A stretch of DNA of 64,000 nucleotides from Escherichia coli (GTDB taxonomy: Bacteria; Pseudomonadota; Gammaproteobacteria; Enterobacterales; Enterobacteriaceae), in NCBI RefSeq assembly GCF_003991155.1, contig NZ_CP031294.1. One strand, written 5' to 3'. Below, in pieces: positions 41,461 through 46,287 of this stretch (within the stretch, counting starts at the first letter, position 1; every line of letters starts with the position of its first letter). The notes below the pieces were generated by a model. The model was given only the letters and a program-made list of their open reading frames with translations. It did no database searches and had not been told where the DNA came from. Both the position numbers and the translations under genes were made by a program.

Positions 41461-41553
41461 GTTGAATATGCTCCTTGATTTGGCGGGTTATCCTTGCCCG
41501 CCATTAAGTAAATACTTACCTATTTTTACCGATATAAAATTTTTTTTCCACCA

Positions 41554-44500
41554 TCACAGACGGCCAATTCTTACTCGTAGGACGTTGTTATCGTCATAAA
41601 CGTCAATCCGCTGACCATTTATAACCAATCTCCCATTGCCGCCGCTATTACCGTTGATCTCAAGCGTTCCATTTTTGCCGAACCGCCATCCAGATCTACC
41701 GCTAACAAAATTGGTAGATTGCAGATCGCCTACTTTTGCATTGGTGATTGTGCCATCCTTGATATACGCTCCATTCATATAGGCGATACTGTTTTCGATA
41801 ACAAATGGCGTTGTGATCTTCCCGTTAACAGAGTTGACCAAACCAAACCTGTCCGCCTGAACCAAAAACTGAGATAGCCCAGTGGTGTCAATACCAAGCG
41901 CAATACCGGCAACATACTTCTGCCCTCCGCTCGTTGAAGTCTCCATTTTCAACGTCCACGCGGTTGATACTTTTTTGTTGGTATCAGCAATAGCTGTTGC
42001 CTGCTGTTGAATTGTCGCGGTATTTCCATCCACCTCTGCTTTCAGAGTATCGATTCGCCCACTCAGAGCATTATCTGCCTGCGTTCTCGCTGTCGTTTCA
42101 GTTGTGACCGCCGCAGAAATGTTGGCTGCTGTTTGAGACTCTAAGTTTGTGATTTGAGTCGCCAATGCAGCATCTTGCTCTGTACGCGTTTTCGTTTCGG
42201 TTGCTACAGCCGCTTTAATATCCTCTTTGTATTGAGAGGTCAGCTTGGTGATCTGAGACGACAACGCCGAGTCAGCATCAGTTCGAGCCTGCGTTTCAAC
42301 TGCAACGGCCGCACTAATATCTTTCGCTGTCTGTGCTTTTAAACTTGAAACCTCTTTTGTTAAAGCGGTATCACCATCTGCACGAGCCGTTGTTTCTCTG
42401 GCAAGAGACGCCTCGAGATCATTAGCTTTTGCTGTAAGAGACGTAATCTGGGTAGACAATGCACTATCGGCATCAGTCCTTGCTTTTGTCTCTACAGCAA
42501 CCGCTGCGGCAATATCAGTTCCGGTTTGTGCTCGCAGGCTGTTAATTTCTCGTGAGAGCGCCTGGTCAGCACTTGCTCTGGCCTCCTGCTCCTGAGTGAT
42601 GGCCGCGGATATATCACCGTCAACCTTTGACTGAAGCTGGTTTATTTGTTTGGCTAACGCAGAGTCCCCGCTTGCTCGGGCCTCCTGCTCACTACGTATT
42701 GCAGCAGAAATATCATCATCAACCTTTGCCTGAAGTTGGGTGATCTGGCTTGCCAGAGCCGAATCTTCCGTTGCTCGGGCTTCTTGCTCTTCCTTAATAG
42801 CTGCGACGATATCGTTGCTTACTTTCGACTCAAGCTGAGTGATCTGTGTCGTCAGAGCTTCATCGGCAGATGTACGAGCCTCCTGCTCTGTACTAATCGC
42901 CGCGCTGATATCTCCTTCAAACTTAGATTGCAGCTGAGTGACACGCTTTGCCAACGCTTCATCGCCATCGGCACGAGCGGTGGACTCTTCCAGAATACTG
43001 GCCTTAATGTCTTCGCCAATTTCTACGCGAATTTCCTCAACCTTCGTGGCCATTGCAGACATATCATCAGCAAAGGTTTTCTGTGTTGTTGCGATCTTCG
43101 CGTTATTGACCATCTGCTTGTGCTGGTCTTCATCTTGACGAAGAGCCAGGTCAATATTTGTTTTGGCTAACGCCTCAATGTTCGTAGTCAGTTCTGCACT
43201 GGCACGATCGACCTCTGCAACCGTCTTTTTCATTTCTTCAACGGCAGCGGAGCTTTCCTCTACCGTTGACTGCAACACTTCCAGTTGTTTAGCGTTTGCA
43301 GCATCGCCTTCAACACGAGCCTCGCTTTCCTTAGCAATAAGAGCCGCCGCTTCATCTCTTGCAGCCTTTATTGCCTCGACTGTATTAGCGAGAGCTTTAT
43401 CGTGTTCAGATACGGTGTTTTCGATTTCAACAATTGCAGCATCAGTAGCATCAATTTTTTCAAACGCTTCATTGACCTTGTCGATCGTTGCCGAAACCTC
43501 ACCTTTAAGCTCGGTTTGTGCGTTCTCCAAAGCATCGCTACGCTCGTTGAATTTTATTTCAAAATCCGCGAGGTTATCGCTGAACTGCTTATCTAATTCA
43601 GCTATATCTTCCTTAACGTCGTTTACCGCCCCCTCCAAAGATTCGACGCTCTGGTTGATATGCTCATTTAACTCGTCAACTGCTTCTTGAGAGGCTTTGC
43701 TGTTGATGTCCTCAAGCAGAGCCTGACCAAGCTCGGAAGATGTAATTTTGCCAGTCAGGAACGACAGTACATCGCGAGTTGTCGCCTCTGTACCCAAGTT
43801 TGAGTTCGGAGGACTTAACATACCTCGCTTGTTCGATGCTCGAACCCAGTAATACCACGTTTCGCTATCCCCAAGACCAGCATGTGTAAAGGTGGTGCTT
43901 GCAGACTCTGCGATCAGTTTCGCCGTATCCAGATTGTTGGTCTGGGATGCGTAAACATTAATGTGATCAAGGTCTACCGAATCTGGATTAACCCAATTCA
44001 GTATCACATTACGATAGTCTCCAACGGCCGTTAATGACGTTGGGGCATCCGGCGGTGTCATTGTGCCCAACACCTGATAAACGGTACTGATAATCTCTGT
44101 TTTTTTACCGTTGAATGAAACCGCATACAGCTGGAAGTCGTAGCGTCCATTCTCCGCGACATTAACGATTTCGTATTGCTCTTCGGTTACACGCGCCGAT
44201 TGCCAGTTCGATACATTGTTTTCATCAGAACGTCGCCAACTGATCCAATACTCTGGAGATTTCCCTTCCCATGTTGCAGTCAGTTTTACTGACAGGTTGC
44301 CCGGGCTTGAGAGATAAGTCCCTTCAGTGATTTGCAGATTAGATGGCTTGGAGTAAGTTGGGTCCAATACCGTCGTATTCTGCGGGATCAGCGTTGCACC
44401 ATTGTCGATTGCCTCATATTTAGACGGATTGTTCTCAACAGCGGTGATGTCAAAGCTACCCGGCGTTTCCCCTTGCGCGATGTTAACGATGCGAACGCGC

Positions 44501-46287
44501 ATAGGTTCGAGGTCTGGTTCTGTAATAGTCCAGACGCCGTTCAAAACAGGCGTTTCAGCCGAAGACAGGGCTTTTGAAAACGTAACTTTTGTTATATTTT
44601 CGCCAGTTTCAAGAACATCGCGTTCAACGATTTTGCCTTCCTGATTCAGTATTCGAATAAAGCAGCCGCCTTTGGCTAACGACACAGGCGCATCGAGTGT
44701 GACGCTGTTTTTGGTAAACGCCACAATTCGACCTGAGTTACGTTTGCCTGCGCGATATTTGTTCTGAATCAGAACGGTTTCACCAGGCATCAGAAATGAC
44801 GCGTCTAAGCCGGCAGTAAATGTAATTACATCCGACTCCATTCTGGCGGTATATAAAAGCCACAAACCAACTCGGTGAGCCTGCCCTCGGCTTGTACAGC
44901 CAAATGCTACGACTTCTGTTTTACGCTCACCATAACGGCGCATTGCGTCCTGATCTTCGACGTACTCGATGTTTTGCTTATAACCGTCCTCCTTGTTGTT
45001 GTAGGTTACGAGCGCAACGGATGGGCGATCTTTACGCGCAGAACCTTTATAGGTAAACAATCCATCTTTGACGTTAGAGTTGGTAAACATCATTACCGGA
45101 TCTGATGGGCTATCCTGCATGATGTTAACCATCCCACCAGCCCAAAACACCATGCCGCGGAATGCTCCGGCAATATCCTGAATTAGCCGGTATGCGTCCT
45201 GTCGACTGGTGATCTGCGTATTGATTGCAAAGCGTTTCTCTTTGCCACCAAAGCCATCATCGACCTCTTCGTCACAATATCGACCAATCTGGTACAACTG
45301 GCCAAGGTCAATCATAGATTCCGACACATACTGACCAAGGCCATATCGAGCATTGGTCAGCAAATCAAAGAGAATCCACGCGGGGTTCGAAGAAGACAAC
45401 AGCTTAAAAGTGCCATCCCATACCCCAGCGTAAGTGTTACTGGACTCGTTATAGTTTGAAGGTACTCGAATTTTTAGGCCACGCACCAGATAAGAGCGAG
45501 ATGGCATGGTGCTGCCGAATTGCTCAGAGTTTACCTTCAATCCAACCAAAACAGAGTTTGGATAGTTCATCGGTGTATCGACAATTTCCCCGATTGAATC
45601 CACCCATGTATCGTTATAGAGATACTGGCTACTGTTATCATCGGTAATACGGACCACACGAACCTTGTATGCTCGTCCAGGCTTAGGCAGCTTCAGCTCA
45701 TAGCTACGGTAATAAACGCCGGTCTTCTTTGCTGTTAGCTTAATGCCAACGCTTTTTTCACCTTCAGCGACCACATCTACAAATGTTGAGTCGCCATTTG
45801 CTATCTGGAACTTGTACTCAACAGTCGTACCGTTCGTGTCACCAGTTTTTTTATCTATGCTTCGCAAAGAAGGAAACTTCATGATGACACGAACCCGATC
45901 AGCTTCATCGTTATCGATTGAAACCGTTACATAATGTGTTTTTTTTAACTGGATATTGACGGATTTAGGCGTTTCAACGAAATCAAAGCCAGACATTGGA
46001 GTCTGGTCTTGTGAACCGTCGCGAAAATCCCATGTGATTCCGCTGAAGTTGGAGGAACCGTCTTCATTTACAATCGGCAGATCGTCGATAAAAATAGATC
46101 TTGCGCCATTTACTAAGCCGCCAATTACCCCTTCCCCAAGAAGATCGAGGATAGCGGCCATTGCACGAGAATTTACGGTATCGTCGGCTTCAACCGGTGT
46201 ACGGCTGGAGCTTTTGCTGCTTTTTTTACCACCCGCACCGGCAATAAACAGCGGTAGCTTTTTCTTCTTGAACTGTTCCATGTTCAA
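41554..46287 (-). CDS. Central tail fiber / host specificity protein (lambda gpJ-like)
   Basis: Segments matching my recollection of lambda J, e.g. AFGCTSRGQAHRVGLWLL and C-terminal YVAGIALG...SQFLVQADR; 1577 aa with an inserted tandem-repeat coiled-coil region. Confidence 0.85.
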   Translation of the reverse strand: MNMEQFKKKKLPLFIAGAGGKKSSKSSSRTPVEADDTVNSRAMAAILDLLGEGVIGGLVNGARSIFIDDLPIVNEDGSSNFSGITWDFRDGSQDQTPMSGFDFVETPKSVNIQLKKTHYVTVSIDNDEADRVRVIMKFPSLRSIDKKTGDTNGTTVEYKFQIANGDSTFVDVVAEGEKSVGIKLTAKKTGVYYRSYELKLPKPGRAYKVRVVRITDDNSSQYLYNDTWVDSIGEIVDTPMNYPNSVLVGLKVNSEQFGSTMPSRSYLVRGLKIRVPSNYNESSNTYAGVWDGTFKLLSSSNPAWILFDLLTNARYGLGQYVSESMIDLGQLYQIGRYCDEEVDDGFGGKEKRFAINTQITSRQDAYRLIQDIAGAFRGMVFWAGGMVNIMQDSPSDPVMMFTNSNVKDGLFTYKGSARKDRPSVALVTYNNKEDGYKQNIEYVEDQDAMRRYGERKTEVVAFGCTSRGQAHRVGLWLLYTARMESDVITFTAGLDASFLMPGETVLIQNKYRAGKRNSGRIVAFTKNSVTLDAPVSLAKGGCFIRILNQEGKIVERDVLETGENITKVTFSKALSSAETPVLNGVWTITEPDLEPMRVRIVNIAQGETPGSFDITAVENNPSKYEAIDNGATLIPQNTTVLDPTYSKPSNLQITEGTYLSSPGNLSVKLTATWEGKSPEYWISWRRSDENNVSNWQSARVTEEQYEIVNVAENGRYDFQLYAVSFNGKKTEIISTVYQVLGTMTPPDAPTSLTAVGDYRNVILNWVNPDSVDLDHINVYASQTNNLDTAKLIAESASTTFTHAGLGDSETWYYWVRASNKRGMLSPPNSNLGTEATTRDVLSFLTGKITSSELGQALLEDINSKASQEAVDELNEHINQSVESLEGAVNDVKEDIAELDKQFSDNLADFEIKFNERSDALENAQTELKGEVSATIDKVNEAFEKIDATDAAIVEIENTVSEHDKALANTVEAIKAARDEAAALIAKESEARVEGDAANAKQLEVLQSTVEESSAAVEEMKKTVAEVDRASAELTTNIEALAKTNIDLALRQDEDQHKQMVNNAKIATTQKTFADDMSAMATKVEEIRVEIGEDIKASILEESTARADGDEALAKRVTQLQSKFEGDISAAISTEQEARTSADEALTTQITQLESKVSNDIVAAIKEEQEARATEDSALASQITQLQAKVDDDISAAIRSEQEARASGDSALAKQINQLQSKVDGDISAAITQEQEARASADQALSREINSLRAQTGTDIAAAVAVETKARTDADSALSTQITSLTAKANDLEASLARETTARADGDTALTKEVSSLKAQTAKDISAAVAVETQARTDADSALSSQITKLTSQYKEDIKAAVATETKTRTEQDAALATQITNLESQTAANISAAVTTETTARTQADNALSGRIDTLKAEVDGNTATIQQQATAIADTNKKVSTAWTLKMETSTSGGQKYVAGIALGIDTTGLSQFLVQADRFGLVNSVNGKITTPFVIENSIAYMNGAYIKDGTITNAKVGDLQSTNFVSGRSGWRFGKNGTLEINGNSGGNGRLVINGQRIDVYDDNNVLRVRIGRL

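Follow-up and report, generated by a model that had tools for sequence, protein, structure and literature searches.

A tandem 33-residue repeat in the helical shaft of the SSU5/Cyrano-type central tail fibre J, a candidate fold-switching module of variable copy number

The closest described relatives of the protein considered here are the central fibres of phage lambda and of the F-type pyocins. Lambda gpJ is composed of FNIII-1, FNIII-2, a three-helix alpha-helical shaft of about 50 amino acids, a beta-sheet prism and a receptor-binding domain, and when LamB is bound, residues 841-861 leave the helical state and add beta strands to the top of the prism (PMC11101478). In the F2 pyocin fibre PA0641, the side fibres dock on a trimeric coiled coil, made by residues 907-1084, which has a stutter immediately ahead of the predicted beta-prism, and in the F7 pyocin the equivalent 163-residue coil switches to a beta-prism, the tip opens and the tape-measure protein is ejected (He et al. 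2026 preprint, PMC12874032; Yang et al. 2026 preprint, 10.64898/2026.02.24.707460). The F7 side fibres, like those of F2, dock on the central-fibre coiled coil, and replacement of small prism-corner residues by Gln abolishes killing and leaves assembly unaffected; according to the same 2026 pyocin preprints, of 24 siphophage fibres examined by AlphaFold-based analysis, 21 are predicted to have this dual fold. The signature given there is SxSxxMxxLxS in each strand, in alternating orientation, with an Arg four residues from an acidic residue at the M position, and with a seed made up of three prism strands that do not switch. Here we describe a homologous gene, J, encoded on the minus strand of a 64,000-nucleotide stretch of Escherichia coli contig NZ_CP031294.1 (assembly GCF_003991155.1; hereafter the window), in which most of the helical shaft is a tandem array of ten 33-residue units. 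The best explanation of the array as a whole, which we hold to be somewhat more probable than its denial, is that it forms the metastable, fold-switching part of the shaft, with one hairpin per unit.

The DNA of J is 100% identical to a gene of the E. coli GF66.1 plasmid NZ_CP172196.1 (110,673 bp; coordinates 41553-46280), 99.2% identical to the gene that Escherichia phage Cyrano (plasmid pLF82) has for its 'tail host specificity protein J', and about 78% identical, across its first two-thirds, to that of Salmonella phage SSU5, and the window is therefore assigned to a phage-plasmid of the SSU5/Cyrano type. The gene order, which is tape measure, M, L, K, I, J and side fibre, is that annotated at the Cyrano locus, with matching open reading frames (ORFs) upstream of J in the window. 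In phmmer comparisons with the PDB, residues 18-860 of J align with lambda gpJ residues 3-837 (E=2.3e-124 against structure 8iyk_J) and with the F2 pyocin tail fibre. Pfam places FNIII-A_GpJ (PF24801) on residues 102-236 (E=7e-30), Phage-tail_3 (PF13550) on residues 358-521 (E=3e-34), two weak fn3 matches within residues 645-824, and Phage_Tail_Tip (PF09327) at approximately 1424-1558 (E=1.6e-41), and it returns no significant match from about 850 to 1423; the PHROG is 'central tail fiber J'. These matches bear out an earlier note on this DNA in its description of a gpJ-like central fibre whose array lies between J-like conserved blocks, the first four domains being N-terminal to the array and Phage_Tail_Tip C-terminal, and J is a gpJ/TipJ central tail-fibre (tip attachment) protein. 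Compared with lambda gpJ, it has a homologous hub, FNIII domains and Phage_Tail_Tip beta-prism in the same order, but the lambda shaft lacks repeats and lambda carries an additional C-terminal Ig-like receptor-binding domain, which was not found in J, since J stops 17 residues past the PF09327 match and has no further Pfam domain. That domain is a trait of the lambda-like members and is not required for membership of the gpJ/TipJ family.

The repeat was defined at the protein level. Self-correlation of J residues 1098-1427 gives a top lag of 33 (47% identity), followed by 66 and 99, whereas the best lag in 2000 shuffles of the same residues averages 15% and never exceeds 22%. Written in rows of 33, the array resolves into ten in-register units, with unit 6 having 32 residues, and E2, R6, D10, A12, L13 and L20 are invariant in all ten. 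At the DNA level, self-identity is 52% at a lag of 99 and 25%, which is background, at a lag of 81. The self-comparison that the earlier note had recommended, run here as a self-correlation, thus shows clear periodicity at 33 amino acids and 99 bp; its tandem repeat of roughly ten copies is real and its span of 42030-43000 was essentially right, but the unit it had given, about 27 amino acids or 81 bp, has to be replaced, and its own consensus string has 31 residues. The units are 40-69% identical to one another in DNA, share exact words of no more than 12 nucleotides (nt), and agree in codon choice at only 36% of the residues that are identical between units. It is this divergence that limits Tandem Repeats Finder to 2.2 copies of period 99, at 42572-42789. 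The units of the array are old at the DNA level, and it is at the protein level that the repeat has been maintained.

The helical segment sits, by Pfam and AlphaFold2, between the second FNIII domain and the beta-prism tip, and the whole shaft, of about 577 residues of which the array accounts for 330, occupies the position of the lambda alpha-helical shaft. The AlphaFold2 monomer model covered residues 1230-1575, that is, units 5-10 plus the tip, and was made with a 38-sequence alignment and from the single sequence. With the alignment, model residues 2-154 form a single helix with a predicted local distance difference test (pLDDT) score of about 90, a short break follows in unit 9, and beta strands begin at residue 1410 (1410-1417, 1420-1432 and 1438-1449); without the alignment, the helix continues through to residue 1439 with pLDDT 90-95, and residues 1410-1439 are helical. 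Unit 10 is the sole unit with predicted beta structure, and its strands coincide with the positions of the signature motif, while the three strands that are predicted directly after the coil match the position of the F7-type seed. The long alpha-helix proposed in the earlier note is thus predicted for the modelled units, through most of unit 9, with or without the alignment, and its coiled coil gains support from homology to the resolved trimeric coil of PA0641. A Foldseek search with the model as query retrieved PDB matches for the tip domain alone, namely the SU10 tail-tip fibre and the lambda gpJ central fibre in its open state, and gave no informative match for the long helix.

The homology to the solved central fibres extends into the array. 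The last 348 residues of J match 9l9p_S (E=9e-27), 25vf_A of the F2 pyocin (E=2.8e-25) and 23gd_D (E=5e-16) in alignments that run through the units as well as the tip, with units 6-10 aligning to PA0641 residues 927-1072. The array alone matches 9l9p_S (1e-10), 9ze4_N (3.5e-8) and residues 969-1095 of the F2 fibre (3.2e-5), where it should be borne in mind that the preprint applied a similarity cut-off of E<1e-6 against F7, and that the comparison here is with F2. In addition to this similarity of shaft and tip, J shares with the F-type pyocin fibres a TipJ-type hub, FNIII domains, a helical shaft, a beta-prism tip with predicted strands at its start, an adjoining side-fibre gene, and the SxSxxMxxLxS motif with Arg four residues from Asp or Glu. 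It differs from them in the extent of the shaft, which compares with a switching segment of 163 residues in F7, in having ten clear 33-residue units compared with one that can be recognised, and in its setting, as the pyocin is a tailocin in which the switch has been seen experimentally, whereas J belongs to a DNA-injecting phage-plasmid and its switch is a proposal. The pyocin preprint gives no account of a repeat architecture or of copy-number variation, and the word 'repeat' is absent from it; nor did we find a paper describing the SSU5/Cyrano J array. A shaft of this kind has thus been described recently, and what is new here is the regular 33-residue modular architecture and the quantised differences in copy number among phage-plasmids.

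The array carries the fold-switch signature throughout. With S scored as A, S, T, V or G and L as L, I, V, M or F, SxSxxMxxLxS is matched 35 times in the 330 residues, against 12.6 +/- 3.2 in shuffled sequences (maximum 25). The motif occurs in forward orientation at columns 12-22 of all ten units (for example ALASQITQLQA) and in reverse orientation across the unit boundary, from column 30 to column 7 of the following unit, again in ten of ten (for example AAIRSEQEARA), with an extra forward match at columns 5-15 in six. The invariant R6 lies four residues from both E2 and D10, forming an E2-R6-D10 ladder as the preprint describes, and A, S and T account for all 60 instances of the six 'S' columns. 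Across 473 units from 117 diverse proteins, small residues make up 87-100% of the same columns and charged residues 0%; this set of units was gathered with the repeat hidden Markov model (HMM) built from J itself. Turn-forming residues make up 62% of columns 8-11 and 38% of columns 23-29, compared with 4-18% of the proposed strands. The F7 corner residues 987, 995, 1010 and 1017 have a spacing that fits about 15 residues per strand, and two strands per 33-residue unit are therefore preferred; on the same spacing, two other topologies, in which one unit would make one long strand or one rung round all three prism faces, were set aside.

Together these observations suggest the following mechanism. 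The ten units would make up the distal two-thirds of a trimeric alpha-helical shaft, an expanded form of the short lambda gpJ shaft and homologous to the F-type pyocin coiled coil, which would hold the beta-prism tip away from the tail-tip hub. When the fibre touches the cell surface, the first strands of the tip domain would act as a seed from which the helices convert into a triangular beta-prism, with each unit giving one beta-hairpin made of an 11-residue strand, a 7-residue loop, a second 11-residue strand and a 4-residue turn. From simple geometry, 330 residues at about 0.15 nm would make a coil of about 49 nm and 20 strands at about 0.48 nm a prism of about 10 nm, so that the fibre would collapse from the one length to the other, drawing the tail mouth to the outer membrane and opening the tip, and the number of units (1, 4, 5, 6, 9 or 10) would set the reach and the stroke of the device. 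The trimeric state in this phage, the fold switch, the mapping of hairpins onto units and the lengths are what we infer from homology, motif and geometry. If the unit is a whole hairpin, then only in-register gains and losses of whole units would be tolerated; the hairpin reading would also explain why the exposed positions are kept small, and why the shaft diverges in sequence and the hub and tip do not. A stronger version of the proposal, which we put forward tentatively and judge possible though short of an even chance, is that the 33-residue unit is a quantised fold-switch module, worth either one prism hairpin or about 5 nm of coil, and that a natural allelic series of 1, 4, 5, 6, 9 and 10 units (20 or more in distant relatives) tunes a spring for envelope penetration that needs no ATP, setting its reach, its stroke and the energy it stores, while hub and tip stay constant. 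In a paper that does not describe the tip (PMC9928086), putative Cyrano virions have tails of 259 +/- 12 nm compared with 230 nm expected from the tape-measure length, and the tip and the central fibre may account for some of this excess of about 29 nm.

Several considerations weigh against a fold switch in the array. AlphaFold2 gave no beta conformation for the array proper, either with or without the alignment, and only some 23 residues at the boundary changed between the two. The array-only similarity to the F2 fibre is modest, and in the pyocin region only one unit, the last, is clearly recognised by the repeat HMM. The fold switch itself comes from a single unrefereed pyocin preprint, whose authors regard lambda and T5 as being without an extensive switch, and which mentions five or six strands in the phage homologues, so that a prism of 20 strands would be unusually long. 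The hairpin topology is an unproven proposal and may be otherwise, and intact J genes with a single unit are common, which makes the long array dispensable. A hydrophobic period of about 2.06 had also been considered as independent evidence of beta structure, and it was dropped as a harmonic of the 33-residue period.

An alternative reading, which takes up the coiled-coil stalk of the earlier note, is that the shaft is a static spacer, a rigid trimeric coiled-coil stalk that sets the distance between the tail tip and the receptor-binding tip, with unit number fitted to the thickness of O-antigen or capsule and with no refolding. It would be in keeping with the confident helix prediction, with the homology to a resolved coiled coil, with the lack of a beta model for the array, and with unit-quantised lengths that differ by host (10, 9 and 1 in E. 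coli, 5 and 4 in Salmonella, and 6 in Yersinia and Cronobacter). The sequence of the coil is harder to accommodate. Upstream of the array, residues 850-1097 (248 residues) are already a heptad-type coil, rich in A, E and K, lacking Pro and with a hydrophobic period of 3.55, whereas the array is rich in A, T, S and Q (22% Thr plus Ser) and has a period of 3.65-3.67, equivalent to nine core positions per 33 residues; the canonical heptad period of 3.5 is not found in the array, where the peaks are at 3.65 (33/9) and 2.06. The Chou-Fasman helix and strand propensities differ weakly, being 1.10 and 0.95 for the array and 1.14 and 0.93 for the upstream coil. Non-heptad trimeric coiled coils of the hendecad type (11/3) occur in fibrous adhesins and phage needles, and the array is like such rods in its period, but it is unlike static ones in having small residues at exposed positions and the motif in both orientations. 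A spacer leaves unexplained the six positions in each unit that the coil would expose to solvent and that are strictly kept small and uncharged, the turn-former-rich segments at hairpin-loop spacing between motifs of opposite orientation, and the conversion to beta structure in the homologous pyocin segment and at the end of the lambda shaft. As the full account of the array we therefore find a static spacer rather unlikely.

A second alternative is that the helical region serves mainly as a docking platform for the N-termini of the side fibres, as the F-pyocin shaft does, with the repeats providing multiple or adjustable sites. The docking of the F2 and F7 side fibres on their coiled coils gives this a precedent, and a large side-fibre gene lies immediately downstream of J, the product of which is a likely partner for the central-fibre shaft by analogy with the pyocins. 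There is also a conserved island within the otherwise divergent shaft: residues 1021-1097 (42991-43221, minus strand) are 81-95% identical across five length variants, with a peak at TNIDLALRQDEDQHKQMVNN, compared with 28-75% for residues 861-1020, and on this conservation the island is a candidate side-fibre docking site or hinge. That candidate, however, lies upstream of the array and not within it, variants with one unit retain the same gene layout, and the units of the array diverge (62-69% identity) while hub and tip are conserved. Docking as the main function of the repeats is accordingly, in our estimation, distinctly improbable, though docking and a fold switch are compatible, the pyocin having both, and either a spacer or a docking role is possible alongside a switch, since these roles are not mutually exclusive.

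To place the array among its relatives, units were counted with the same HMM. Ten units are found in Cyrano and in CMS-2020a (SCU-175), nine in PhiR41_1 and in a family 90% identical to the J protein, six in plasmids of Yersinia pestis and Cronobacter, five in SSU5 (whose J has 1385 residues), four in a Salmonella Typhi protein, and one in the common 1229-residue J of E. coli, the lone unit of which is the front of unit 1 fused to the back of unit 10. In 66 SSU5-group sequences, the distance from an anchor before the array to an anchor at the start of the tip is 46, 145, 178, 211, 309 or 342 residues, which fits 13+33n when the one-residue gap of unit 6 is allowed for. Between SSU5-group variants the hub is 88-97% identical, the tip 93-95% and the shaft 57-69% (array units 62-69%, upstream shaft 60-69%); in the case of SSU5 itself, hub and tip are 90% and 95% identical to those of J. 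The tip is as well conserved, at 93-95%, in the 1-, 5- and 10-unit variants, a change of receptor through the array is therefore unlikely, and the array probably does not set receptor identity, as far as these sequence comparisons indicate; the effect on host range supposed in the earlier note is at most a possibility. Homologous J proteins thus do not share one fixed segment, having from one to ten units, and the variation in length that the earlier note had anticipated is borne out by whole-unit differences and by one single-unit event: between the genes of PhiR41_1 and SCU-175 (99.7% identity) there are 16 substitutions in 4.7 kb and a single indel of exactly 99 nt, with the 11-nt direct repeat GCTGCTATTAA flanking it.

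The recombinational route by which that note had expected such variation is less well supported, since the units are too diverged for ordinary unequal crossing-over and the close E. coli relatives all have ten. The J gene was found in 227 of 5426 complete E. coli genomes, always on plasmids, and in a spread sample of 60 of these 227 matches, all 38 uninterrupted copies of at least 94.6% identity span 4723-4728 nt, which corresponds to ten units, with the sample also including nine copies that span 4151 nt and two single copies, of 4626 and 3690 nt. Among plasmids of other genera, spans of approximately 4.0-4.2 kb dominate. Given units this diverged and a number this constant among close relatives, length change is occasional and mediated by short homology. 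A contingency-type hypervariable repeat, in which slippage or unequal crossing-over would give frequent length heterogeneity and host-range switching, has in its favour the single-unit indel and the near-identical units of the P0017/P0121 lineage described below, but it is largely refuted for J and very improbable, as the near-identical DNA units and the copy-number heterogeneity among close relatives that would mark such a locus are not seen in the J array (longest shared word 12 nt, ten units in all 38 close copies), and the tip is unchanged across the length variants.

In a lineage about 50% identical to the J protein, proteins P0017 and P0121 have four consecutive near-identical units, TETKARTDGDTALGSQITSLKTQTA.DIKAAVA, a pattern that indicates recent unit duplication there. 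A wider search, made with five units plus the tip against 1.84 billion cluster representatives, returned 3037 clusters at E<=1e-3 and 1299 at E<=1e-10, and the best 150 clusters have up to 24 units per protein, spaced mostly by 31-33 residues. On these matches, the unit is a widespread building block of tail fibres and ten copies are not extreme. To call the array an insertion, as the earlier note did, is questionable, as tail-fibre clusters with units of this type number in the thousands and the same place in lambda is taken by a short helical shaft.

The source of energy for the breaching of the outer membrane by non-contractile tails is a long-standing question, and phage-plasmids of the SSU5 type are common in E. 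coli and also occur in Salmonella Typhi, Yersinia pestis and Klebsiella. If the array is indeed the same device as in the pyocin, built from countable modules, then the natural variants of one to ten units would constitute a ready-made series for finding out how adsorption and ejection depend on shaft length with smooth, rough and capsulated hosts, the dependence of penetration on spring length would become directly testable in a DNA-injecting phage, and a design rule for phage and tailocin fibres would follow, namely that whole 33-residue units be added or removed. If it is a static stalk only, then it would be an ordinary example of fibre length variation.

Table 1. Coordinates of J, its parts and the adjoining side-fibre gene in the window
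Feature	Position	Strand	Basis
gpJ/TipJ-type central tail-fibre (tip attachment) gene J, 1575 aa plus stop; start codon ATG at 46279-46281	41554-46281	minus	ORF and translation
Hub and FNIII part of J, aa 1-849 (FNIII-A_GpJ, Phage-tail_3, FNIII-1, FNIII-2)	43735-46281	minus	Pfam; lambda gpJ alignment
Non-repetitive helical shaft, aa 850-1097, with the conserved island aa 1021-1097 at its end	42991-43734	minus	periodicity, composition
Degenerate half-unit just before the array, aa 1067-1097	within 42991-43734	minus	repeat HMM
Array of ten tandem 33-aa (99-nt) units, aa 1098-1426	42004-42990	minus	register, periodicity statistics
Unit 1	42892-42990	minus	register
Unit 2	42793-42891	minus	register
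Unit 3	42694-42792	minus	register
Unit 4	42595-42693	minus	register
Unit 5	42496-42594	minus	register
Unit 6 (32 aa)	42400-42495	minus	register
Unit 7	42301-42399	minus	register
Unit 8	42202-42300	minus	register
Unit 9	42103-42201	minus	register
Unit 10	42004-42102	minus	register
Beta-prism tip domain (Phage_Tail_Tip / lambda 'central straight fibre' type), aa 1427-1575	41557-42003	minus	PF09327, AlphaFold2, Foldseek
Side tail-fibre gene downstream of J, 1342 aa	37432-41460	minus	ORF and translation; tail-fibre PHROGs

Insertion sequences (IS1203-family, IS1, ISEc23 and an unnamed transposase) break up the J gene of several plasmids that are otherwise close, and some of these phage-plasmids are therefore probably tail-defective. 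Truncated database entries had been considered as possible assembly breaks at the repeat, and this was rejected, as the truncation points are upstream of the array. The SSU5-like J proteins of Klebsiella (vB_KpnS_p4727, vB_Kpn_1825-KPC53 and further plasmids) share only the first approximately 900 residues, and their C-terminal part, of more than 1300 residues, is different, with other coiled segments that alternate with globular modules. The side-fibre gene is annotated in Cyrano as a homologue of the S fibre of phage P1, and its product has an Ala/Ser-rich low-complexity tract at roughly residues 150-440 and at least five copies of a GNA(S/A)TATKLQTAR...GV.FDGS motif. Finally, two ORFs lie on the plus strand opposite the shaft, at 42736-43170 (144 residues) and 43163-43690 (175 residues), and we suppose that they may be by-products of the Ala-rich coding strand of the repeat.

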